Part shown: positions 22,653 to 57,771 of the stretch, piece by piece
Position numbering within the stretch: position 1 is the first letter of the stretch
Layout: the number at the start of each line of letters is the position of its first letter
Origin: Pelagomonas calceolata
Taxonomy: Eukaryota
NCBI GenBank assembly: GCA_918797485.1
Contig: CAKKNE010000002.1
Coordinates: forward strand, 1,054,001-1,118,000
DNA length: 64,000 nt
Direction of reading: 5' to 3'
The notes under the pieces: generated by a model
Database searches by the model: none
Told to the model about the DNA's origin: nothing
The model's input: only the letters and a program-made list of their open reading frames with translations
Translations under genes and position numbers: made by a program

Positions 22653-22676
22653 GCTAGTGTCTTACAAGCCGCTAGC
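22653..22676. promoter_or_regulatory. Motif P copy (reverse)
   Basis: GCTAGTGTCTTACAAGCCGCTAGC, 186 bp upstream of ATG 22862. Confidence 0.6.
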
Positions 22677-27285: not shown

Positions 27286-28769
27286 TTATGTGGAGATACT
27301 TAGCATCGCGCTCGCGGGCGCGACCACTCCCTCTCCCCAGCCGACCTCGCCGACGCCCGGCACGCAGGAGTACTGCTTCGCGACGTAGGGCGGCAGCATG
27401 TGCGTCAGGTCCGGCCGCCGCGGATTCACGTCGTAGAACGCAGACCAGCCGCACCGGTAGCGCGGCACGAAGGCGCCGCCCTCTCCGAGGAGCAGCGGCG
27501 CCGGCGCGACCGGAAACGGGGTGCACGGCGGGCACGTGTCGCGGTCGGGCGCGTCCGCGGGGCAGCAGACGGCGGCGACGGTAGTGAGCCGGTCGCGGCG
27601 CTCCCGCGGATAAGCCAGGCACGCCTGGACGTAGCGCACGCCATCTATAGTAGCATCCCAGCCGAAGTGCGTGTGGCCGAAGACGTGCACGTCCGGCTGC
27701 AGGCGCGCGACGCGCCGCTCGAGGAACGTCGAGCCCACGGCCTTCGCGAGCGCCGGCACGAACAGGTACCGCTTCTCAGGAACTAATTCAGGGCGCGGGA
27801 CGAAGTGCGAGAAGGTCACGAGCGGCAGTGAGGGATGTGCCCGGCGCAGCGCGGCGATGGCGCCATCATCGTTGCGCGCGTCCAGGGCCTCCGCGACCGA
27901 GTCATCCGTTTGCGAGAGGCCTGTGCATAAATCAAAATTTCACGGCGCGTTCCACGCCATCGACGCGACGCCTGCTCGATGGCGTGGCGATGCCGGTTCC
28001 CCATTGCTCGACGGAGCCAACACGGCCGCGTCATCGCCGAGAAGTGCACCCGACACACTGGCTGATTTCCACACAGAGACAGACCCGGGAACTTGCAGAG
28101 GTAAAAGTCCGAGATAACCTGGGATGCGGGCGGCAGGCCCGCCCAGCCCGTCACCTCGGGCTCGCGGTCGAAGGCCGCGTGGTGCCAGGCGCAGAGCGGC
28201 GCGACCACACAACCGCCCATGATGGCTGGTGTGCGGCGCACGCCGAGCTCGTCGCACAGAGCGTCGACCGCTCGCAATTTGCTGAGCGAGTCGGCCCAGG
28301 GCTCGCCGCGCGTGACCCAGACGTCGTGGTTGCCCGGGACAAAACTCACGTCAGCGAAGGCGCGCTTGCACAGTTGTAACGTCTCCCTTAGAATCGAGAA
28401 GCGCGACGACACGTCGCCGGCCAAGATGAGGCCGTCCCGTCGCAAGTCCGTCCTTGAACACATACGTTTTAACCAGTCCAGGTTCTCCCCATGGTCCGTG
28501 TGCACGTCGGAGAGGGCCCAGAGCCGCGGCGGCGGCTCCGGACCGGCTTCCGGCGGCGGGGGCGGCGGCAGATCAACTGGCGCGTCGGCGAGGCACTTCG
28601 CCGACGCCCAGCCTTTCAACGGCGCCAGCACTTCCCGCCGCGCGACGCCGTCGTGGAACGCGGACTCGCCGCAAGTCAGCACCGTCCCCTTCGGCAGCTC
28701 GCCTATGACGTCGGACGCCAACGAAGGCCCCGCTCGGACCAGCGCCGCCTTGTTCTTCACGATCAGCAT
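27286..28769 (-). CDS. SH3-like + calcineurin-like metallophosphoesterase; exons 28769-28085, 27920-27286
   Basis: SDVH, LAGD, PGNHD, FSHF and FGHTH motifs. N-terminal VRAG...GELPKG...GWAS is an SH3b-like module. Spliced join FPG|LSQTDDS. Confidence 0.88.
27921..28084 (-). mobile_element. Introner element intron (164 bp, GT-AG)
   Basis: Ends CTGTGTGGAAATC / GATTTATGCACAG, duplication GTCTGTCT vs GCCTCTCG. Same subfamily as 9390-9601 but in the opposite orientation relative to its host gene. Confidence 0.9.
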
Positions 28770-29041
28770 CACTTCCTCGGTTGGGCATCGGGCGCCTCCG
28801 GATCGCCCCCGGGAACCATCATGGCCACGTTGTTGCCATTCAACAAAATCTGGTCGAGTTTTGTTTTTTCCCGACCGCGCGCCGTCACGACGTACTCCGT
28901 CACATCATCTAAGACCATATTAACAAATTCGTCGAAGCCGCGCAACGTACCCACCACTTCCTTGTCGCCCTTCATGATGACCCAGATCCTAGAACCGATG
29001 CACTTGTCTACCAACTCGAGGGGGAGGAGGCGGCCGGCCAT
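28769..29041 (-). CDS. LSM5: U6 snRNA-associated Sm-like protein LSm5
   Basis: [46 protein letters not shown]...[18 protein letters not shown]. Confidence 0.97.
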
Positions 29042-29237
29042 TTTTTTGTCGTTTGTGGCGTGTTTGGTGCGGCGCGGCTGTCGAGATGTTGTCGCTGCTG
29101 CTGGATTGGTGCGGCGCAGCGCTTGTGGAGATGCCGTGGCGTGCTGTGGGCAACGCTGTCAGTCTGTCAAAGGCACGAGTGGTGCACGTAGCGCGTCGTA
29201 TTCGCTGGCGCGGCAATTTGGTCCCAGGAGGCTTTTT

Positions 29238-29259
29238 GCTAGTGTCTTTCAACGCTAGC
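29238..29259. promoter_or_regulatory. Motif P copy (reverse, variant)
   Basis: GCTAGTGTCTTTCAACGCTAGC, 197 bp upstream of the LSM5 ATG. Confidence 0.55.
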
Positions 29260-30861: not shown

Positions 30862-31347
30862 ATGGGCAAGCGCAAGGCCGAGGGCGAGTCGAAGCCCAAG
30901 TCGAGCAAGAAGGAGAAGACCGACGACGACGACGAGGGAGCGCCGCCCAAGACGTACCAAGAGCGCCTCAAGGCACTGAGCCCGATCTCGTCGCCGCTCG
31001 CCGACGAGAAGCTGACCAAAAAGCTGCACAAGCTCGTGAAGAAGGCCAGTCAAGGCAAAGCTTTGAGACGGGGCGTCAAGGAGGTGGTGAAGAGCCTGCG
31101 GCAAGGCACGAAGGGCATGTGCATCCTCGCGGGCGACGTCTCGCCCGTCGACGTCATCGCCCACCTGCCCATTCTGTGCGAGGAGCAGGACGTGCCCTAC
31201 ATCTACGTGCCCTCGAAGCAGGATCTTGGCTATGCGGCTCTCACCAAACGGCCGACGTCGGTCGTGCTGGTCGCGCCGAAGGGCGGCGCGGCCTTCGAGC
31301 ACCAGGACCTCCTCGACAAGGCGATCTCGGCGGTCGGGAGCAAGTAA
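30862..31347 (+). CDS. NHP2: H/ACA snoRNP subunit NHP2 (L7Ae family)
   Basis: SPISSPLADEKLTKKL, LRRGVKEVVK, LAGDVSPVDVIAHLPILCEE and LGYAALTKRPTS. Confidence 0.93.
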   Translation: MGKRKAEGESKPKSSKKEKTDDDDEGAPPKTYQERLKALSPISSPLADEKLTKKLHKLVKKASQGKALRRGVKEVVKSLRQGTKGMCILAGDVSPVDVIAHLPILCEEQDVPYIYVPSKQDLGYAALTKRPTSVVLVAPKGGAAFEHQDLLDKAISAVGSK

Positions 31348-31547
31348 GGCTCGTTTTCTTTTACTCCTTAAAAAACCCGGGTGGTAAAATGAGTCGAGTT
31401 TTCATTCATCAGCTCGGTGCTGTCCGCAGCCGTGATTATTAGCTCGTGAAAGTGCAGGAGTTTGCGATTTTATTCATTGCTCTTGCATTTGCGCAGTGCT
31501 TGACAGCACTGCTGTGCCCTGCGAGCCCTGCAGACTGCTGCACACAT

Positions 31548-33542
31548 ATGGCAGAGGACTTCCCGGACGTGTGGACCCTGGCGGGGTGGCATGGACCGCC
31601 GCCGGAGGTAAAAGACGCGCTGTGGGCGGCGTGGCCGGAGAACAGCTTCTCGCGCAAGATGCGCTGGCACGAGGCCTTCCTTTCGCAGATCCCGTTTGAA
31701 GACGAGGAGAGAGGCATCGTGGTCGAAGTGCTGTGGCCCGGCGGAGGTCTCGCGAACTGGGTGCCGCTGGCGCACATCAAACCGCGCGGCGGCCTGGGCG
31801 AGACTGCGCAAACGGCGATGGCACGTTTTGGGCCGCCGGCGCCCGAGCCTGATTGCTACGTGCGACTGCCCGGTGGACCGGACTCGCCGCCGCCGAAACG
31901 GGCGCGGGTGGACGAGGCCGCGCCCGCGCCGGCTCCGCCGCGACGGCCGCCGCGGGCCGCAGCGCCGCGATCACCGCCTCCACAGCCTGCAGCGCGACAA
32001 CTACCAGTCGCCGCGCCGCGAGCACCAGCCGACGTGCCGCCGCCGCCGCGACGACCAGCCGCAGCGCCCGTGCCGCCGCGAGCACCAGCCGCTGCGCCGC
32101 GGCAACCACCGGCCGCCGCGGCGCGGCCGCCGGCCGTCGCGCCCACGGCGCCGCCTCAGCGAGCACCGCCGGTCGTGAGACCCGCGCCGCCGCGGCCGCC
32201 CGCACAGGATATCCAGGAGTTCTTCGTCGAAAGGCAGGAAGACGTCGAGCGCCTCGGCGAAGGCGCGGGTGGCGCGCTCATGCCCCACGAAATCGAGGAC
32301 CTGCCCACTGTGCCGTCGGAAGGCCAGTACGACGTGTACTACCTCGGCGACGAACCCGGCCAAGCCAAGCCACTCGTCCGCTTCGCGCCCATCATACCCA
32401 ATTCCGGGTTACATCGGTGCGCGGCCCGCATCGCGCGACTCACGGTCGGGCGGATGTGGCTCACGGACCCGACGCCACGGGGACACGACGGTGGCGCCTC
32501 GGAATACCGGATGGTCGGTTTCAGCCGCGTTAACCGGAAAGACGGAGTGGGCGAGGGCGTCACCTTCTACGGTCCCCTGCGAAACGCATTGGGCCGAGAC
32601 GGCTCCAGCCCGAACAATCGCCACTTCCACAGAGAGATCGAGTTGCGGCTCGACAGAGCGCGCGCGGACATGGCGGCCGAGATCGAGAAGGTTTGGCCCG
32701 ACGATGTCGGCGCCGAGCTCGACACAGTCTCTCAGCTCCGCGCCACGGTCGAGTACGAGGGCCAGCGCGCGCCCACGGCCATGAGCTGCACGTTCGCGCT
32801 CATAAATAAATGGCACCGCGACACGGGGGACGAAAGGGACACCGACGAGCTCGCCTGTACCACGGTCGTCACCCTCGACCTCGCGACCGTCGGCGACCTC
32901 GAGGCGCCGCCGGAGCTGCCGCGCCGCGGCAAACGGCAGGAGCGCGGCCAGGCGCCCTCCGAGTCCCAGTTCTACGCTTTTTTGCGGAAGGCCTGGAACG
33001 CGCACCTCGGCACACACGTTCTCGCGTACCCGCCGCCGCCTGCCGGAACCGTGGGAGGGCCGATGTGGAACTTCGTGGTCGGCCGCGCCGTCCGCTTGAA
33101 CCTAGGCGGCACCGGCGTCGGCGCGGCGGTACGCTTCCGGGCCGCCGAGACGTGGCACTCGACGGTCCACGACGCCCCGGCCTCGCGCGCGCGGTGCCTT
33201 TGCGGCATGGGCTTCTACAACAAGGCCTCGATTGTGGGACCGCTCTGGTACCGCCTGGACACGTTGATGCGGGAGGTGATCGCTCGGGCCAGCTTGCCCG
33301 TCGACGACCTCGCCGCCTACGGTTCGAACGCCTACGAGTTTGACACGGTCGAGGACCGCTACTTGGAGGCCTTGCACGCGTTGGATAGGGAGCCGGGCAC
33401 GCATCCGCGCGACGCGCTCGCGCGCCTCGATCGGGGCGGCGCGGCGCCCGAGGAGCCGGCGGAGCCCCCCGAACGCGTCTACGACGACGCCGAGGACGCC
33501 GTCGACGATATGGGGTTCGACTCGGATGGTCTCATTGAGTAA
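31548..33542 (+). CDS. Tudor-like N-terminus + Pro-rich linker + putative TET/JBP-like 2OG-Fe(II) dioxygenase
   Basis: Long ORF with WHRDTGD (HxD), VRFRAAETWHST (distal H) and RCLCGMGFYNK (R...aromatic) in DSBH order. The family assignment is inference. Confidence 0.6.
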   Translation: MAEDFPDVWTLAGWHGPPPEVKDALWAAWPENSFSRKMRWHEAFLSQIPFEDEERGIVVEVLWPGGGLANWVPLAHIKPRGGLGETAQTAMARFGPPAPEPDCYVRLPGGPDSPPPKRARVDEAAPAPAPPRRPPRAAAPRSPPPQPAARQLPVAAPRAPADVPPPPRRPAAAPVPPRAPAAAPRQPPAAAARPPAVAPTAPPQRAPPVVRPAPPRPPAQDIQEFFVERQEDVERLGEGAGGALMPHEIEDLPTVPSEGQYDVYYLGDEPGQAKPLVRFAPIIPNSGLHRCAARIARLTVGRMWLTDPTPRGHDGGASEYRMVGFSRVNRKDGVGEGVTFYGPLRNALGRDGSSPNNRHFHREIELRLDRARADMAAEIEKVWPDDVGAELDTVSQLRATVEYEGQRAPTAMSCTFALINKWHRDTGDERDTDELACTTVVTLDLATVGDLEAPPELPRRGKRQERGQAPSESQFYAFLRKAWNAHLGTHVLAYPPPPAGTVGGPMWNFVVGRAVRLNLGGTGVGAAVRFRAAETWHSTVHDAPASRARCLCGMGFYNKASIVGPLWYRLDTLMREVIARASLPVDDLAAYGSNAYEFDTVEDRYLEALHALDREPGTHPRDALARLDRGGAAPEEPAEPPERVYDDAEDAVDDMGFDSDGLIE

Positions 33543-33659: not shown

Positions 33660-33947
33660 CTACTTGAAATGCACGAACTGCGACCCGATGATGATGATCA
33701 GCGCGAAGGCGAAGGGCGGCCCGACGACGCGCAGGGCCGTGTCCTCGGGGAGGTCGTCCGACACTTCCTGCGGCCGCTCGCCCGTGCCGTCGTAGTTCAG
33801 TCGCGTCGTGTCGAGGCGGTCAGGCGTCGACGAGAAGTCGATGGGCGAGAAGTCCGCCCGGGCGAGGGGCCGCGTCGTCGCCCGCGCGGGCGGGCCGAAG
33901 GCCTCGACGAGAGCTGCAGCTCCGAGCAGTGAAAAGAGGAGGCGCAT
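33660..33947 (-). CDS. Small plastid-targeted single-TM protein
   Basis: MRLLFSLLGAAALVEA-F (ASAFAP-like), a transit peptide and a C-terminal hydrophobic helix. Confidence 0.7.
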   Translation of the reverse strand: MRLLFSLLGAAALVEAFGPPARATTRPLARADFSPIDFSSTPDRLDTTRLNYDGTGERPQEVSDDLPEDTALRVVGPPFAFALIIIIGSQFVHFK

Positions 33948-47222: not shown

Positions 47223-47246
47223 GCTAGTGTGTTACAGCCCGCTAGC
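47223..47246. promoter_or_regulatory. Motif P copy (reverse)
   Basis: GCTAGTGTGTTACAGCCCGCTAGC between divergent ATGs 47088 and 47456. Confidence 0.6.
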
Positions 47247-47455: not shown

Positions 47456-48730
47456 ATGGAGGCCCGCGCCGCGCAGTGGTTGGATGACCCGCCTTACGAT
47501 ACAGCCTTGATTTCCGCGGTGCCGATCGAGCGCTGCCACGTAATGGCAGAAATCTTCGCTGCGTGTAAGGACGGCAACGTCTTCGCGGTGCGGGATTGGC
47601 TCGAGGAGGCGTACGACCGAGACATGGGACTCACGATGGCCTTGTCGTTGAACCCGCTACATCGTGTTGACCCCGACCCATTCACAACCACGCCTCTGCA
47701 CGTCGCGTGTTACCAGGGTCACGTGGACGTCGTCCGATTGCTCCTCAGCCGCCTTGTCGCCGACGACCCTCATCTAGACCGAGTGGGCGGCCTCGCGATC
47801 AAGGGTTCCACGCTGCTCCATGCCGCTTGCACACGGAACGGTCCTGAACGCACTGACGGCAAAATTGCGGTGGTGAGGCTGCTGATGGAGTTTCTTGGTC
47901 ACGTCGCGACGGGCACGGGTTGGGTAGAACTTCTCCCACTCTCGGCGACACCCGACCGCGCCAAGGAGGCTGCCGAGTTTCGGGGCGCGGGCGAGCCGCA
48001 GACACCGCTGGAGATCGCGTGCGCGAGTGGCTACGCCGAGATTGTGCGAGCTCTCATCGCAGGCGGCGCCGACGCCGACGCGGTGAATAATGAGTGCATG
48101 GGCGTGACACCGCTGATGCTGGCGTGCCGGTCGGACGAGCGGGGCGCGCTCGCGGTAGTCAAGCTCCTCCTCGAACTTGGCGCCGATCTTACCCGGACGG
48201 GGGGAGTCGATGGCAACACGCCCTTGCACTTTGCATGCCGTTCCCTGAGAGCGTCGAGTTGCGAACGCTCCGAGGTCGCACGCTTACTATTGGCGCGGGG
48301 CGCTGCGTTTGACCTGGAAAACACGAAGGGCAATACTGCGTTAAGCTATGGGTCAAGGAGACTCTTCGACGACGAGATGCGCCTCGCGCTCTGGCGCCGC
48401 CTCAAGCTCTACGCCTTCGGGAGACCCTCCAAGTATACGCAGTCGGCGTTGCACCGCGTCGCGGGCCTGCCCGAGCTCTCGCACCACATTGGTTCGTTCT
48501 TGGTTCTCCGCTCCGTGGATCTCATGCTTTCGAACCGCGAGCGTGCCGCCGTCCTCCGCGCCATCGCCGAGATCGACGGCAAGGCCACGCAGAAGACGAT
48601 CCGCCGGAATGCCGAGGCAATCCTTGGCATGACCAGCGGCGGCCTCGACGCCAAAAAGGTGGGGGTCAGGCACATCTGCTTCAAGGAGGTCTGGAAGTTG
48701 GGGCTAGAGGGCGTTGGCCCTGCTGCGTAA
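47456..48730 (+). CDS. Ankyrin-repeat protein with possible C-terminal DEK-C-like domain
   Basis: Repeated TPLHVAC, TPLEIAC, TPLMLAC, TPLHFAC, and C-terminal ATQKTIRRNAEAILG...LDAKK. Confidence 0.85.
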   Translation: MEARAAQWLDDPPYDTALISAVPIERCHVMAEIFAACKDGNVFAVRDWLEEAYDRDMGLTMALSLNPLHRVDPDPFTTTPLHVACYQGHVDVVRLLLSRLVADDPHLDRVGGLAIKGSTLLHAACTRNGPERTDGKIAVVRLLMEFLGHVATGTGWVELLPLSATPDRAKEAAEFRGAGEPQTPLEIACASGYAEIVRALIAGGADADAVNNECMGVTPLMLACRSDERGALAVVKLLLELGADLTRTGGVDGNTPLHFACRSLRASSCERSEVARLLLARGAAFDLENTKGNTALSYGSRRLFDDEMRLALWRRLKLYAFGRPSKYTQSALHRVAGLPELSHHIGSFLVLRSVDLMLSNRERAAVLRAIAEIDGKATQKTIRRNAEAILGMTSGGLDAKKVGVRHICFKEVWKLGLEGVGPAA

Positions 48731-48744
48731 TGTCTAGTGAATTG

Positions 48745-49437
48745 TTACCTCTTACGCTTCCGTGCCAACAAGTCACCCGGCGCCCTGAACTGGCGGAACG
48801 TCCACGAGATCCGGCGCCCCGGTTCTCCTTCATCTTTCTTGCGGCGCTTCGGGACCCCATGCACGTGTGTCTGCTGGCAGCTGCCGCCCATAATCAGCAG
48901 ATCGCCGTCGCCCAAATACAACTCGAGCGGCACCGAGTCCGCGGCGTCCGCTTCGAGGGACGCGGGCACCTTCTTCCGCGGCTTGAGCGTGAAGCGCCGT
49001 GAAGCGCCCCACGACACGGACGCGACGGGCGCGCTCGGAACCAGCGCGCGCTCGTCGTCTCTATGATCTCCGAGCCAGTGGTCGGGCTCGTACCAGTTCT
49101 GGAGGCAACTGTTCAGGTCGGACCCGGACCCGAGGGCTTCGTTACATTCAGAGAGCAGTTCGCCGCACGCCGTCGTCGATTCAATAGGCGTCGCCTGGGC
49201 GACCTGCCCTGCATACGCGTAGGACACGTCGCCGAAGGCCCGCGAGTAGCGGTTCTCGTAGCAGCGGCGGTTAAACACGACGACTTCCCGCCTCTCGGCC
49301 GGATGCAATTCCCACTCCGCGTCGAAGCGCGCCGGCGTCGACGGCCGCCAGCGGGATACATGCAGCGCCCACGACGCGGCCGAGAGTGTGTGCAGCGTGC
49401 CGCCCAGCCTCGCGTGGAGCTCCGTCGCCTTCATCAT
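48745..49437 (-). CDS. AlkB-family 2OG-Fe(II) dioxygenase (ALKBH2/3-like)
   Basis: NSCLQNWY, HRDDE, VASVSWGASRRF, GDLLIMGG, HGVPK and RISWTFR. Confidence 0.9.
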   Translation of the reverse strand: MMKATELHARLGGTLHTLSAASWALHVSRWRPSTPARFDAEWELHPAERREVVVFNRRCYENRYSRAFGDVSYAYAGQVAQATPIESTTACGELLSECNEALGSGSDLNSCLQNWYEPDHWLGDHRDDERALVPSAPVASVSWGASRRFTLKPRKKVPASLEADAADSVPLELYLGDGDLLIMGGSCQQTHVHGVPKRRKKDEGEPGRRISWTFRQFRAPGDLLARKRKR

Positions 49438-49646
49438 GTGAATTTCTCGAACAAGATGGCCAGCACGATGGCCGCGGCGAAGAACCCGCTCTTTTCGACG
49501 ATGGCTTTCCCCACGACCGGATCGATGCCGCGCCGCTCGTCGGAGTCAGGCTGGGCGTCGAGTCGCGGCGTCCGCACACGCGGCGGCAGCGTGAATGCAG
49601 TGGCAGCGGCCGCAGCGATGGCGAGCAGCCCGTAGCACCGTCGCAT
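49434..49646 (-). CDS. Small plastid-targeted single-TM protein (70 aa)
   Basis: MRRCYGLLAIAAAATA-F (ASAFAP-like), transit peptide and C-terminal hydrophobic helix. Motif P lies upstream. Confidence 0.65.
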   Translation of the reverse strand: MRRCYGLLAIAAAAATAFTLPPRVRTPRLDAQPDSDERRGIDPVVGKAIVEKSGFFAAAIVLAILFEKFT

Positions 49647-49814
49647 TGAGTCGCGATGCACGCACAGTCCAGGCTCGAGCACTCAAGTAGCGTATGTCTG
49701 ATGCCAGGACCGAGCTGTGTGTGCGGTGCGAAAAAGGACTTGATAATAGAGAACCCGAACTCACCCTAGGGGGTCCGCCTCGGTTGAAGCGTCTGCGGTG
49801 CTGCCTGTCTGCTG

Positions 49815-49837
49815 GCTAGCGGCTGTAAGACACTAGC
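49815..49837. promoter_or_regulatory. Motif P copy
   Basis: GCTAGCGGCTGTAAGACACTAGC between divergent ATGs 49646 and 50057. Confidence 0.6.
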
Positions 49838-50056
49838 AAACCACAAACCCGTGATTAAGGCATATGGTTCGTCTATTAGCTATGGGACATGCTGCCCGAG
49901 GGCTGGGAACGGGCGACTTTTCAGGGCGAGCTGGATACAGGCTTGTTGTTACCCAAGCTGTGCTGGGAGTGGGAGCGTTGTTGTCGTCCGAGCGTTCAGC
50001 AAGCTGCCCCGTGGTCCCTGTGGTCTGTCCTCGGGCGCTGGTGGGCGGGCAGCCCC

Positions 50057-53000
50057 ATGGCCCACGGCCCCTGGGGATCATTGTCTCTGGTGTTTGCTGC
50101 TCTTAGTGTTTGCGGCGCCCTGGGTGGATCCTGCCTCTTCGACTTCGAAGACACCGCCATCGACAGCTGCCCCAGCGGGTGGACCTGCACGGGCGACGCG
50201 CGCGTCGTCTCCCGATACACGTGCGTGTCCGGTTGCGGGACGCCGCTGCCCAACGCCCAGGGCGAGCAGTACTTTTCGATTGGCGGGGACGGCGACACGG
50301 GCACGGCGCAGTCGCCGACGTTCGAACTCCCGTCCGACGCCCAAAGCCTTGAATTCCTGCGGTGCGGCGGCGCGGATTCCCCCTCCGGCGTTTCGGTTCA
50401 CCGCGAGAGCGGCAGCGTGGTCTGCTCAAGCAGTCGCGGCGACGACACGGATTCGTTCTTCTGGGATTCCTGCGACGTCTCCAGCGCCGACGGCGAGAGA
50501 GTCTACGTGCGGATCGTCGACACTCAATCTTCCTCTTGGGGAAAGGTCTTCGTGGACAACATTCGCCTCGACGGCGGCGGCGATGGGTGCGATGATAGCG
50601 GCGATTCTTCGGGTTCAAACTGCGACCGTAGCCTATGCTCGAGCGTCGCCGACGACTGCTGCGCGCCGCTGAGCATTGGCGAGGCGGCGACGTGCCGGAA
50701 CGGCTACGTGGCGCAGCGGACCGGAAACGGGTGCTTTGGGTACGGCGAGGGCGATTACACGTGCTGCTCGACGTCCGCTAGTGATTCAAACTGCGCAGCG
50801 GCGAGCACCGGCGCTTGCCTCGAGGGCGGCGGTGTCGACAACGACTGCTGCGCTACTTGCGGCAACGGGGGCTGCGCGTCTGGTTATACCTATGCTGGTC
50901 AAGTTGTCATCGACAGCGGGACGCTCTCTTCGACGTACCCTGACTTCTACCCTCATTGTGGCACGATGTACTGCGGCAACACGTGCTGCGTGCCGTCGAG
51001 TGGTGGTTCGGAGCCAGACGAGGGCGAGGCCGCGCCCTGCAATGGAGGCCACGATGACGCGGAGCGGATACTAAGCTGTATCAAACAATTCTCCGCCTCG
51101 GAGTGGCTCGGCTGCACCTCAGATGGGAGATACGAGTGCCACTGCAGCAATGACGATGGGGTCAACTACTGCTGCGGTAGCCAGAACCAAGCTGAGGCCA
51201 TCGCGATATGGGAACAATGCCTCGGGGAAGGTGGCTCCTCTACTACTGGATTTACGATCACAAGCTCAAACGTGCATTGGGACGAATGTCCCGGCGAGTG
51301 TGCCGCCATTGGGGGCACATTCGCTTGCATCAGCGACGAGTCGCAGAATGGGCAAGCCTTGGCGGCGTTCGGGGGCAGTTGTCCCGACGGAGCGGACGAC
51401 TGCGGGGCATGGATCGCGGTGAACGATAAGGCGTCGGAGGGCAACTGGATCTGCACGGCCGACGGCAGCACACAAACCTATCAACCTTGGTCTGCCATTG
51501 GTAGTGAACCCAACGGCGGCTCCGGCGAGAATTGCGCGAATATGTGGGGCCCAAACTCGGGAAGAAACGACGGGGCGTGGAACGACTACGGCTGTACCGA
51601 TGCTCGCATGCCATGCATATGTAGGGGCGGGGGCGATGACGAGGACTACTCCTTAACGTACTACGATGACGGGTCGCGCCAGACGTACGAGTGGATGAAG
51701 AGCAGCTGCGCAACAAAGGGCAAGCGCCTGTGCACGTACGGCGAGATTTGCCCCAATGGAGGCCCGCACCAGGCCCCGTACGGCGGACAGCAAGCAAGCA
51801 CTGATATGTGGGCGCCAATAACTCCCGATGCGGGCGAGGGCGGCAGCAGGAACCAGGATTGGGTTCAGATCGGGACGCGTGACGGTGGTATGTGCAACAA
51901 ACACAGCTCGTTTTACGGTGGCGTGCATCCTGACGAGTGCTGCTGTGGAGACTGGTGCAATACGAACGTGCAACAGGTGGCTAAGCGCATATATGCGTGC
52001 TGTGACGGGGAAGGTGGCTCCTCTACTACTACGACCGGTACGAACTGCCGAAGCGACATCTGCACGGACTACGCAGAGGACTGCTGCGCGCCGGACGACG
52101 AGCCCCGCGGGTGCAGCCTCGCGGGCTACGAGGTGCAAGATGACTGGGTGGGCTCGTCGGGCTGGCCATCATGCGTCAGCACGTACGGCCAGGAGTCGGT
52201 GTATCAATGCTGCTCGACGTCCTCGACTGGCTCCTCCGATGCGCTCTTCGTCGCCGGGCCCTCGGGCGGCGACTATCGACGGCGGCGGCGGCGACGACAT
52301 CCGGGCGACGTGTCAGTGCGCCTCGGAATACGAGTGGTGGGACGACCGCCGGCTCTCCGCCGTCGACGAGCCGCGGCGTCTGGGTCACTGCTGCGACTAC
52401 GGTGCGTACTGCTCCTGCATGGAGTCGGAGCTCGGCGCCGGCTGCACTGCGCCCGACTGCGGCGACTGGGACGAGGACGAGGACTGCGGCTCCGACGCAA
52501 CCAGTGGCTCGGACGCAGACGTGACGTGCTCCTTGGTAATCAACGACGAAATTACCGCCGTGTACGTCGACGGGCAGGACGTCACGGACTCTCTCTGCGG
52601 CGAGTGGCCGGCGACGCTCAGATTCTCCAGCGCGGCGAGTCTCTTCGCAATCAGCGGCTACGACAATCAGGGCGGATGCCAGTACGGCGGATTCGCGATG
52701 CGCTGCTCCACGGCGGACGGAACCGGGCCGTGGCACGGCCTGACGGCCGACACGCAGAACTGGCGCGGGACCAACTGGGTCTCTGGGAGCAGTTGGACGC
52801 AACTCGGCTTCGACGACAGTGCCTGGCAGACTCCCTCCGTGGGTGGCGAACCGCAGTACGGGTCCGAACTCGTCGGGGGCGGCGACACGATTTGCGTCGA
52901 GGGCGATTTCTACTTCCGAAGAGAGGTTGATCACCCGACGCCCCTCGAATCGCCCTTCCTCGTCACCGGCGACCTCACCTTCGAAGGCATGACGTACGAA

Positions 53001-53906
53001 GCGGCGCTGGACAACACCAACGTCTTCCTCGCCGCCGTCGCCGATCTCTGCGGCGTGGCCGCGTCCGCCGTGACCGTGGAAATCTCGAGGGCCCGCCGCC
53101 GTCGTCGCCTCGCGGAGGGAATCGTGGTGACGTACACCGTGGGCGTCGCGTCCGCGAACGAAGCTCAGACGGTCACGAGCGCGATTTCGAGCAGCTCGAC
53201 AGCAGACGTCGACGCCGCAATCAGCAAAGCCGCGACGAACGCGGGCGTCGACGACGATTTCGACGGCGTCACGACGACCAACGTGGGTACGCCCACGGCG
53301 ACGGCGTCCGACGACGACGGTGGGTCCTCCAGCGGTAAAGACGACGGGCCGGATGCTGCGTCGGCGGCGACGATCATAGCGTCCGTCGCGGCGGCTATGT
53401 GTGTGGTCTTGATTGGAGTCGTCGGTCTTCTTTACTGGAAGACGCAGCAGGTCCAGGGCCGACCGGTGAGGCCCGTGGGCGCGGTCGCGGTGGAGATGGC
53501 CACGTACGGACAGACGATGGTCGCCCCCAGCTACGTCCTCAAGGCGAACAGCGACGAGGTCTGGCGGGACCCCGCCCCCCGGGCGTCGGCGCCGCCCGGC
53601 CGAAGCTTTTGCATCGACTGCGGTGCGGCGATCCAGGGCCGGTTCTGTGGCGCATGCGGGCGGAATCAGCCCGCGGCGGCTCAGCCCGTGGCGGAACAGC
53701 CACCCTTTGTGGCGCCGACGCTTTTCCGGCGGCAGCCAATGGACAATAATCAAGGCGCGCCGCACAGCCTTCCCGTAGAGATCATCAGCGCCGCCGGACA
53801 AGGGCCGCCGGCCGGCGCTCGACCCGTCCCGCAGGGGTCCGTGGTACAAGGCTCCGTGGTGCAGGGGCCCGCCGTGCAGGAACCCGCCGAGCAGGGGTAC
53901 CTTTAG
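50057..53906 (+). CDS. Cys-rich C-type-lectin type-I membrane receptor, copy 1 (frame break near 52276)
   Basis: Signal peptide MAHGPWGSLSLVFAALSVCGA, beta-sandwich-like FDFE...VFVDNIRL module, CTL with EPN/WND, RRRRRL stalk, TM and cytoplasmic CxxC-x8-CxxC zinc ribbon. Encoded by two overlapping ORFs. Confidence 0.7.
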
Positions 53907-54096
53907 GTCCGTTCGCTTTGTCGAAGAAGAATGATCACTCCCCCTCCCCGCGGCAGATGGTGTTGCCGGCGTCCGCGTATATACCTTTTCTGACAATTGA
54001 CCCAGAGGGGGGCCAACTTAGATCTCGCGAGCAGCCTGTAGCACAGTCCAGGACTCAAGCACTTAAGACTTTTTTGGCAAAACTTGGCTTGGCATG

Positions 54097-54118
54097 GCTA
54101 GCGGCGTAAGACACTAGC
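54097..54118. promoter_or_regulatory. Motif P copy
   Basis: GCTAGCGGCGTAAGACACTAGC, part of the duplicated 5' region. Confidence 0.6.
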
Positions 54119-54361
54119 AAGCAAAATCTGGGGCAAGGCGTATGGTTCGTCTATTAGCTATGGGACGTCGTCCGGAGGGCTTGGGACGAGCGATTTTTTA
54201 GCGCGGATATACAGGCTGATAACACTGAGGAGCTTGGCTTGGGCAACAAGCGCCAAGGAGTAGAGCTTTGTTTATCGTCCGAGTGGTTCGAGAAGCTGCT
54301 TCGTGGTCCCTGTGGTCTGTCCTCGTGCGCTGGTGGGCGCTGGGATCGCTGGGGCAGCCCC

Positions 54362-57300
54362 ATGGCCCACGGCCCCTGGGGATCATTGTCTCTGGTGTTT
54401 GCTGCTCTTAGTGTTTGCGGCGCTATTGACTCTCTCGGCGCACGGCCATCCGTGTCGTGGAACGCCGCGCGCGCAGAGTGCGAGTCCCGAGGCCAGGGAC
54501 TCTGCTCGTCCGAAGAGCTCTGTCCGACCGGTGCGCCGTTCGATGGCGGCGTTGACAGCACGGACACGTGGGTGCCCGTGTCGGACGGCAGCGACGAGTG
54601 GCTTCAGTACGGGAAATGGGCGAACTCGTGGCAGCCAGGACCACTCTGCAGTCTGCACAGCGTCCAGTACGCGCCCGACCCGCATCCCTGCCACACCCAT
54701 CCAGATCCGGCGCGGTACCCAGACGCGGCGAGCTGCGGCCACTCCTTCTTGTACTGCTGTAGCGGCGACGGCAACGATTCCGGGAGCTGCGCCGACGGTC
54801 TCTGCTACACGCTCTACTCGGGCGAGGACTCGCCATCGGAAGCTGAGGACAGATGCGAAGACCGCGGCGGGCACCTCGCCAAGGTGACTACGGCCGGGCA
54901 GGTCGCGACGGTGAAGGACGTGCTTAAGAATGTGCCCGACGGTAACTGCGTCCGCTTCGGCGCGATCAAGGAGGCTGGGTCCTGGCGGTTACTGCGATCG
55001 ACGTTATCGAGAACAATGGCGGGGAATACTGTAGCTGTTACTGGGTAGCGGACGACAACGTCTACGACGCGCCTTGCCACGGAGGGTGGGGCCAGGGCGA
55101 CTACTACCTCTGCGCGACAAGCGAGGGCGATGGCGAGGACTACTCCTTAACGTACTACGATGACGGGTCGGGCCAGACCTACGAGTGGATGAAGAGCAGC
55201 TGCGCAACAAAGGGCAAGCGCCTGTGCACGTACGGCGAGCTTTGCCCCAATGGAGGCCCGCACCAGGCCCCGTACGGCGGACAGCAAGCAAGCACGGATA
55301 TGTGGGCGCCAATAACTCCCGATGCGGGCGAGGGCGGCAGCACGAACCAGGATTGGGTTCAGATCGGGACGCGTGACGGTGGTATGTGCAACAAACACAG
55401 CTCATTTTACGGTGGCGTGCATGCTGACGAGTGCTGCTGTGGAGACTGGTGCAATACGAACGTGCAACAGGAATGGAAGCGCATATATGCGTGCTGTGAC
55501 GGGGAAGGTGGCTCCTCTACTACTACGACCGGCACGAACTGCCGAAGCGACATCTGCACGGACATTGCGAACGACTGTTGTGCGCCGGGCGGCGAGGCCC
55601 GCGGGTGCAGTATTACGGGCTACGAGGTCCAGCCGGATCCGACGGGGACCTCGGGCTACGGGCCTTGCGTCAGCACGTACGGCCAGGAGTCGGTGTATCA
55701 ATGCTGCGCGACGTCCTCGACGTCTGCTGGCAGCGGCTCCTTCGTGTACGTCGATCAAGCGAAGAGCTTCGACGACGCGCGCGCGTACTGCCGCGCGAAC
55801 TATCACGACCTCGCGTCGATCCACAGCTCCAGCGAGAATGCGGCAGTAGCGGCGCTTTGTCCCGGTGAATCATGCTGGATCGGGGGCTCCGACGCGGCCC
55901 AAGAGGGCACGTGGACCTGGTCGGACGGCACGGCGTGGGACTACGACAACTGGGAAAGCGGAGAGCCCAACAACTGGGGAGGCGACGAGCCCTACACCGT
56001 GATCTACGACTCAGGACGATGGAACGACGAGAGCCGCTATGGTACTTACCCATTCGTGTGCGCGACTACATTTACGATCACAAGCTCAAACGTGCATTGG
56101 GACGAATGTCCCGGCGAGTGTGCCGCCATCGGGGGCACATTCGCTTGCATCGACGACGAGTCGCAGAATGGGCAAGCCTTGGCGGCGTTTGGGGGCAGTT
56201 GTCCCGACGGAGCGGACGACTGCGGGGCATGGATCGCGGTGAACGATAAGGCGTCGGAGGGCAACTGGATCTGCACGGCCGACGGCAGCACACAAACCTA
56301 TCAACCTTGGTCTGCCATTGGTAGTGAACCCAACGGCGGCTCCGGCGAGAATTGCGCGAATATGTGGGGCCCAAACTCGGGAAGAAACGACGGGGCGTGG
56401 AACGACTACGGCTGTACCGGTGCTCGCATGCCATGCATCTGTAGGGGCGGGGGCGGTGGCTCCTCTGAGGATCTCTTCGTCGCTGGGCCCTCGGGGGGCA
56501 ATTACTACGACGCGACGGCCTACTGCTCAAGCATAGGCGCATCGATCGCCACCATCTATAGCGCGACCGAGAATGAGCTGGCGCGCCAAGCGTGCGGCGG
56601 CTCGTCGTGCTGGATAGGCCTCGAAGAAGTCGGCGGCAGCGCGTCGACGCCCAAGGCGAGCCAGACGTGGCGGTGGATGGATGGATCGACAGCCAGTTAC
56701 ACGAACTGGGATGATTGGGAACCGAATAATCACGATGGGAACGACGAGAGGAACGCCATGATGAATTGTTGCGGCACAGACGGCGTTGACGCGTCGGGCA
56801 TGTGGCACGACGCGCCGTACAACTACGACGAACCGCGACCCCTCTGCCGCACCGATGATTGCGGCCCATCCTCCGGCGGCTGCGATCCGATCTACAATTT
56901 CGCCGGCGCCACGCGGACGTGCACCTCGTCGAACTACCCCGAAAACTGCATCGTGGTGGTCGAGAACTCGCAGCATGCCGACTGCAATGCGTGGTGCGCT
57001 GCCGCCGGGTCTTGGTGTATTAATGGATGGGACTCCCACGGCGGCAGCTGCGATAACATAGACCAAACGGACGACACTTGGCCCCAGGGCTGCGGCGGCG
57101 ACAACCTTTTTCACGACGGAATATGCATGTGCGCTCCAGTCGGCGGCACGTCGTCCCAAACGGACGGCGGGCCGTGCACGCCGCAGCGCGCCGACAACCT
57201 CGATGACGACGGGCCGGACGCGGCGTCGGCGGCGACGATCATCGCGTGCGTCGCGGCGGCGATGTGTGCGGTCTTGATTGGAGTCGTCGGCTTTCTTTAC

Positions 57301-57771
57301 TGGAAGATGCAGCAGGTCCAGGGCCGGCCGGTGCGGCCCGTGGGCCAGGCGATCGCGGTGGAGATGGCCACGTACGGCCAGACGATGGCCGCCCCCAGCT
57401 ACGTCCTCAAGGCGGCGTCGGCGCCGCCCGGCCGAAGCTTTTGCGTCGACTGCGGTGCGGCGATCCAGGGCCGGTTCTGCGGCGCGTGCGGGCGGAATCA
57501 GCCCGCGGGGGCTCAGCCCGCGGCGGAGCCACCGTTCGTGGCGCCGACGCCGAACCTTTTCCGGCGGCAGCCAATGGACAATAACCAAGGCGCGCCGCAG
57601 AGCCTTCCCGTAGAGATCATCAGCGCCGCCGGACAAGGGCCGCCGGCCGGCGCTCGACCCGTCCCGCAGGGGTCCGTGATACAAGGCTCCGTGATACAAG
57701 GCTCCGTGGTGCCGGGGTCCGTCGTGCAGGGGTCCGCCGTGCAGGAATCCGCCGAGCAGGGGTACATTTAG
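54362..57771 (+). CDS. Cys-rich multi-C-type-lectin type-I membrane receptor, copy 2 (frame break near 54988)
   Basis: Same signal peptide, several CTL domains (WIG, WxWxDG, EPNN, WND/WHD), and the same TM, zinc ribbon and QGSV tail. The frame changes inside a CTL domain (GSWR / VIENNGGEYC). Confidence 0.72.

Follow-up and report, generated by a model that had tools for sequence, protein, structure and literature searches.

Two open reading frames meet end to end on the minus strand of the 64-kb window, by which we mean the whole stretch of 64,000 nt analysed here, a GC-rich (57-70%) and gene-dense region of eukaryotic DNA. Bipartite presequences, matches in marine metatranscriptomes and intron features point to a pelagophyte alga, most likely Pelagomonas calceolata. 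The first frame, ORF1 (49434..49646), encodes 70 aa comprising a signal peptide, a basic transit-like stretch and a conserved core with one hydrophobic helix, while the second, ORF2 (48745..49437), encodes a predicted ALKBH2/3-like Fe(II)/2-oxoglutarate dioxygenase of 229-230 aa, referred to below as AlkB. They join at an ATGATG (49432..49437), where the minus strand reads ...TTC ACA TGA TGA AG.... The TGA of ORF1 (49436-49434) sits within this hexamer and ORF2 has two starts there, at -4 (49437, 230 aa) and at -1 (49434, 229 aa), so the stop/start overlap with a double start that an earlier note had claimed for this locus is confirmed (49437-49432, minus strand). Ahead of ORF1 lies a 5' leader of 143 nt without AUG (49647..49789), and one copy of a motif that we call motif P (49815..49837) stands 26 nt ahead of the RNA 5' end at 49789. 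No second copy occurs from there to the AlkB stop, in agreement with the single motif that the note had placed ahead of the pair.

A similar arrangement is found on the minus strand at LSM5 (90 aa, 28769..29041), which has a strong start context and eight internal ATGs. Its TGA overlaps the next ATG (TGATG at 28769), which opens a calcineurin-like phosphoesterase frame (27300..28769, 3' end approximate; Pfam Metallophos, E 6e-07) with an intron at 27920-28083. This GT-AG intron is 164 nt long, holds a high-copy repeat to which foreign reads map by the thousand, and resembles the introner elements of pelagophytes.

The earlier note had left room for ORF1 being unconserved, which is not what we see. 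We find 114 near homologues, all with the same end point, along with a set of distant ones, and on the codon evidence ORF1 is a genuine conserved gene under purifying selection. Alignment and codon variation delimit a conserved mature core (aa 39-70, 49437..49532 on the minus strand) with 12 invariant columns among 13 aligned sequences, and the front two thirds of the near homologues carry many in-frame indels. In the last 30 codons of 13 DNA copies the variable sites fall 7/1/22 by codon position, and pN/pS is 0.16 in frame, whereas the two remaining sense frames give 0.94 and 7.7; for the whole of ORF1 it is 0.37. A profile search in 1.84 billion proteins gave 15 matches. These include eight distant proteins, P0192-P0199, in which the mature core is retained behind unrelated presequences (signal plus transit). 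The wild populations from which the near copies derive (L001-L012, P0001-P0114) show very high allelic diversity, with pS about 0.3 and many in-frame indels in the transit region, and some wild ORF1 alleles have a 23-26-aa insertion.

Bipartite plastid presequences consist of a signal peptide, then F or L at +1, then a basic, acid-poor transit stretch. The signal peptide of ORF1 covers about aa 1-17 and is followed by an 'AF' junction. Further, a hydrophobic N-terminus with 0-1 acidic residues in aa 15-30 is present in 8/8 lineages, and ASAF-type junctions occur in P0195, P0197 and P0204. The predicted ORF1 presequence fits the plastid-type bipartite rule, and its product is likely to be a small single-helix plastid membrane protein, as judged from these sequence features. 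It resembles the small nuclear-encoded single-helix thylakoid proteins (PsbW, PsbJ, PsbR and PsbM types) in its bipartite presequence, short mature part and single hydrophobic helix, but differs from them in having no sequence match in Pfam or PDB. No family name could be given to ORF1 from Pfam, from a profile search of PDB (best E 1.8) or from the ESM Atlas, where named matches score 0.80 or lower. The nearest named Atlas clusters (0.76-0.80) are in the chance range, and we therefore claim no membership in a thylakoid family. The ORF1 profile gave no match in viral contigs. In prokaryote genomes the lone weak match (L014) has no matching small ORF and is taken as chance.

Two further candidates around ORF1 were rejected. 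Upstream Met extensions of its homologues (e.g. P0005) arise from a GTG read as Met by gene callers, since L007 has GTG and the JGI calls print V, and an antisense ORF of 190 aa (49063-49635) has no Pfam match and lies in a frame that is not the selected one. Protein records of ORF1 come from metagenomic sources only, while the exact 230-aa AlkB sequence is present in NCBI/UniRef. This fits the annotation pipeline of P. calceolata, which removed 1006 short single-exon models (PMC9481584).

ORF2 matches the Pfam family 2OG-FeII_Oxy_2 (PF13532) with E 3.6e-22. Against human ALKBH2 (E 1.7e-10) the N-x-Y, the H-x-D, the distal H and both R (R-x5-R) are aligned, hence we regard ORF2 as an ALKBH2/3-like dioxygenase whose catalytic residues are, by alignment, intact. 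Its C-terminal tail is basic, resembles a nuclear localisation signal and is kept in most close homologues, and pN/pS is 0.19 in 10 copies, the cut sequences L010-L012 being left out. With the ALKBH2 and ALKBH3 DNA demethylases it shares the fold family, the aligned metal and 2-oxoglutarate ligands and the basic tail; in contrast to them it is a distant match and belongs to a protist clade, with matches in bolidophyte, diatom, oomycete and haptophyte records. We infer from its sequence that the ORF2 product may act in DNA repair and be located in the nucleus.

Transcription of the pair was followed in four stranded poly(A) runs with one sample label, of which 6-12% of each run was read and 110-212 reads per run were placed. 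Minus-strand depth was unbroken from 49790 to about 48740 in all four runs and never zero. The RNA 5' end at 49789 was given by 7 molecules (run X22), with depth upstream of it at or below 0.3 in 4/4 runs. These short reads, at low depth, showed no splice joints, no indels and no clustered internal begins or ends within the pair in any of the four runs, and hence assembly error and any major spliced fusion are excluded. The ORF1/ORF2 depth ratios per run were 1.64, 1.14, 0.73 and 1.70, and depth dipped at 49294-49435 in all four (lowest 1.8), with a loose correlation to GC (rho -0.35 to -0.58, p 0.03-0.22). At the LSM5 pair the RNA 5' end is at 29206, and reads continue from there across both ORFs, with spliced reads at the intron. 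Depth there is continuous but uneven, at 24-126 in LSM5 and its leader and 3-15 at 28528-28695, rising again further on, and the second ORF contains two clusters of RNA 3' ends, at 28608 and 28684.

Beyond the pair, the AlkB RNA and the RNA of a convergent ankyrin gene overlap at their 3' ends (window 48726-48870), the two stops being 15 nt apart. Just past the AlkB stop, the window shares a short element, ACTAGACATTA, with 7/9 loci reaching it, even with differing downstream sequence. A sigma-70 scan found no promoter; it should be noted that this is a bacterial-type model and not relevant to a eukaryote.

The two genes also stay together in relatives. ORF1 lies directly ahead of AlkB in 12/12 close metagenome loci, with L013 left out. 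In a sister lineage (AlkB 84%), the longest contig given for P0201 and for P0179 alike measures 96,994 nt, and the upstream part of P0153, decoded in the shifted frame, equals P0201 at 34/34 positions and ends in a -1 overlap. A divergent relative has an ORF1 homologue (P0193, 69% over 42 aa) and an AlkB (P0130, 70%) that are both named ORFs of MMETSP Transcript_10716 (g.33043 and g.33041), names that do not show order or spacing; as an assembled transcript it can be a merge of neighbours. For the ORF1 lineages P0194, P0195, P0197, P0198 and P0199 no AlkB partner was assignable, the candidate links being distant or better-explained matches.

The common RNA that the earlier note had proposed for the two ORFs is likely, given one 5' end at 49789, unbroken depth and both ORFs on one assembled transcript in the divergent relative. 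We consider a bicistronic nuclear mRNA of about 1050 nt covering ORF1 and ORF2 to be probable, and infer single molecules that span both. The other possibility is that there are two mostly separate transcripts, the AlkB start site lying inside ORF1 and the ORF1 RNA ending inside AlkB, in which case the overlap would be tight packing. In its favour, depth dips just beyond the junction, the ORF1/ORF2 ratio varies among runs (0.73-1.70), the 3' ends at LSM5 fall in the second ORF, and short-read assemblies can merge neighbours. Several window genes are also without motif P, so its absence inside the pair leaves room for a promoter there. On the other hand there is no step up in depth and no clustered begin or end in the pair, depth never reaches zero, and the last 90 nt of ORF1 show free variation at synonymous sites. 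In the divergent relative the two ORFs bear the name of a single transcript. Overlapping transcripts would, moreover, add to the depth at the junction, and since depth there is flat or low this speaks against them. We regard two separate transcripts as quite unlikely, noting that fragmented RNA-seq is compatible with a minor internal start.

Motif P (GCTAGTGTCTT...GCTAG) is built of two CTAG arms flanking GTGTCTTACA. The window holds 17 copies, mostly 100-300 nt ahead of gene starts and often between divergent genes, for example at 388-410, 22653-22676, 29238-29259 and 47223-47246 in addition to the one at 49815-49837. The distance to mapped RNA 5' ends is 26 nt at ORF1/AlkB and about 32 nt at LSM5. 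In the wild loci the motif is upstream of ORF1 in 10/12 and inside the pair in none. The motif is associated with promoters in general and does not single out overlapping pairs; it appears to be a core promoter element used throughout the lineage. Depending on the allele (L004, L010 and L006 included), it lies between 25 and 168 nt from the ORF1 start, and owing to this variation some ORF1 leaders may be very short.

Elsewhere in the window another small ORF (33660-33947, minus strand, 95 aa) has a signal peptide, an AF junction, a C-terminal hydrophobic helix and its own motif P. On the plus strand (30862-33542) an NHP2-like gene precedes a 664-aa ORF, separated from it by 200 nt that contain no motif P; this and other tandem pairs were considered as overlaps and rejected, as gaps and internal ATGs rule them out. 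Also on the plus strand, 49889-57771 holds tandem duplicated Cys-rich DUF7495/C-type-lectin genes, and the promoter region upstream of this locus has a second copy near 54100-54390.

As for the junction itself, an ATG touches the stop at 406/2748 stop triplets of the window and at 6/31 hand-picked gene ends. This is commonplace, and the overlap motif alone is therefore no evidence. At two of the same 31 ends, LSM5 and ORF1/AlkB, the overlapping ATG is the start of a long ORF that has a Pfam domain. The junction is polymorphic among wild loci: its spelling is ATGA in 6, GTGATG in 3 and ATGATG in 2 of 12, and one locus (L004) has a 54-nt spacer; L013 (46% over 52 aa) was left out of these counts, and L008 is without the ORF1 start. 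As four junction forms occur across the 12 loci, the double start represents one of several alleles, and with ATGATG in only 2/12 of them the suggestion that the -4/-1 double start is a special device does not hold. The distance from stop to start is within about 20-30 nt in the window and in 11/12 wild loci, compared with 54 nt in L004. The L004 insertion has a 3-nt repeat on its flanks and GT...AG inside (L004 301-346 and 577-631), and judging by these letters the spacer might restore an overlap if it were spliced.

Since the two frames abut, one may ask whether the pair makes one fused or recoded protein, through a frameshift, a hidden intron, read-through or an assembly error, sending AlkB to the plastid. 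One AG in the L004 spacer would join the frames if used, and there are two predicted chimeric proteins, P0147 and P0200, both of which resemble indel-ridden gene calls. Against this stand the reads without joint or indel, the one end point shared by all 114 near ORF1 homologues and the differing frame relation in L004. Followed upstream, the AlkB frame runs into a stop within 4-37 codons in 13/13 copies, no intact fusion was found among 390 proteins searched, and the AlkB homologues retain their basic nuclear-type tail. A fused product is highly improbable.

We favour an explanation in which the ALKBH2-like enzyme would be made by ribosomes that skip a weak first start codon. The majority of ribosomes would initiate at ORF1 and give the protein with the bipartite presequence, bound for the plastid. 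A minority would scan past the U(-3)/C(+4) context, cross 209 AUG-free bases and initiate at the junction, yielding a little of the nuclear enzyme. In that case the overlap would be the minimum spacing in a compact genome, not a required signal. If the mRNA is bicistronic, leaky scanning of this kind is in our judgement the probable main route. To the whole explanation, namely a bicistronic mRNA with a plastid-type ORF1 protein and an ALKBH2-like ORF2 reached by leaky scanning, we assign a probability of about 0.5.

Several observations point to leaky scanning. The ORF1 start context in the window is weak, with U at -3 and C at +4; U stands at -3 in 10/12 full ORF1 copies and G at +4 in none of the 12, and in a small, hand-picked control both positions are weak in 3/29 other window starts. 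The 5' leader has no ATG, and no AUG lies between the ORF1 start and the junction in 12/12 full copies. The ORF1 family has no internal Met in 689 residues from 8 lineages, where 9.9 are expected at the window rate; for its 430 presequence residues, 5.5 are expected on the basis of 12 signal-peptide controls. Pelagophyte-like AlkB homologues are themselves Met-poor (9 in 1459 residues), and on that basis the expected ORF1 count falls to about 4. The 54-nt spacer of L004 is also counted for leaky scanning. Synonymous variation ahead of the junction is not reduced (pS 0.31-0.32 versus 0.31 in AlkB), and the covariation term near the junction is -0.23, with a double change in 1/33 pairs.

Other observations tell against leaky scanning. 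As the first 204 nt are free of ATG in 11/30 window genes too, AUG scarcity at one locus alone is weak evidence. An internal Met is present in 9/106 close ORF1 homologues, a purine stands at -3 in 2/12 alleles, L006 has an additional upstream AUG, and in the 6 ATGA alleles AlkB, too, has a weak start context. The overlap is retained in 11/12 loci, and the LSM5 pair is not easily served by leaky scanning. It should be noted that the alleles are related, hence counts over them are not independent. Taken together, the case for leaky scanning is moderate.

Since 11/12 wild loci retain the overlap, the chief rival is termination-reinitiation on one mRNA, where a fraction of ribosomes would restart at the overlapping AUG after the ORF1 stop, and likewise at the LSM5 pair. 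Those wild loci have the overlap in three spellings, the sister lineage has it as well, and AUGA/UGAUG is the geometry classically associated with reinitiation. At LSM5, where the first start is strong and 8 ATGs lie inside the frame, the overlapping Met is the only in-frame one before the first phosphoesterase motif. The core motif of the viral reinitiation element TURBS is TGGGA. This generic core, as opposed to one derived from the host 18S, is absent within 110 nt in 13/13 copies and at LSM5, which argues against reinitiation, as do the lack of synonymous constraint and of any covariation-supported structure. Neither the weak ORF1 start nor Met-free presequences far from the stop are predicted by reinitiation. 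As described in one account of TURBS (PMC10275272), reinitiation after long ORFs usually requires an additional element, and the 54-nt gap of L004 exceeds the roughly 30-nt limit given there; on the supporting side, Kozak context is irrelevant for the TURBS type, in keeping with the weak context that AlkB has in ATGA alleles. We regard reinitiation as rather unlikely.

For LSM5 the balance is different. Its strong start and 8 internal ATGs make leaky scanning implausible there, and the phosphoesterase would need either reinitiation on read-through RNA or a separate transcript. On sequence grounds the LSM5 pair appears to be a better candidate for true reinitiation than the AlkB pair. The earlier proposal of one reinitiation system for both loci does not follow from these data, as the AlkB pair carries the marks of leaky scanning whereas the LSM5 pair has the opposite marks along with 3' ends in the second ORF.

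In the open-access literature we found no published nuclear bicistrons in pelagophytes or other stramenopiles, and the word 'cistronic' does not occur in the main text of a pelagophyte pangenome preprint. The present case would thus carry nuclear bicistrons, if true, into a second supergroup of eukaryotes and into an alga that is very abundant in the ocean. It also brings to light a conserved family of small plastid-type proteins dropped by standard annotation, and the wild junction alleles (-4, -1, both, and +54) are a ready natural test separating leaky scanning from reinitiation. Further, we speculate that pelagophytes have a genome-wide class of nuclear bicistrons, some of which, e.g. LSM5-phosphoesterase, would use stop/start-coupled reinitiation without a TURBS-like element. 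We consider this unlikely. If true, 2 of about 31 genes scales to several hundred or about a thousand loci, and there would be a eukaryotic nuclear counterpart of prokaryotic translational coupling, hiding many small unannotated plastid proteins.

Among known systems, viral TURBS reinitiation in caliciviruses and influenza B (PMC10275272) shares with our locus the AUGA/UGAUG geometry and an out-of-frame second ORF behind a long first one. It differs in that the present case is a cellular nuclear gene where no TURBS core or conserved structure was found; furthermore, one allele has a 54-nt gap and there is no evident functional stoichiometry between the products.

The closer comparison is with green algae, where nuclear bicistronic mRNAs are pervasive and translated by leaky scanning (Gallaher 2021, PMC7896298; Duenas 2025, PMC11892635). 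These papers give medians of 291-357 nt for ORF1, 40-183 nt for spacing and 54-83 nt for leaders. In common with these, our locus has a short ORF1 (213 nt) and a longer ORF2 with separate start and stop codons, a weak ORF1 context with few AUGs ahead of ORF2 (PMC11892635), probable transcription from the upstream gene, conserved colinearity and ORFs often without assigned function. It differs from them in its host, a stramenopile with a secondary plastid, in its spacing of -4/-1 as opposed to their median 40-183 nt, and in a leader of 143 nt (much shorter in some alleles) compared with their 54-83 nt medians; it is known, moreover, from sequence and short RNA reads. The ORF1/AlkB locus is likely to be a bicistron of the green-algal type in a new lineage.
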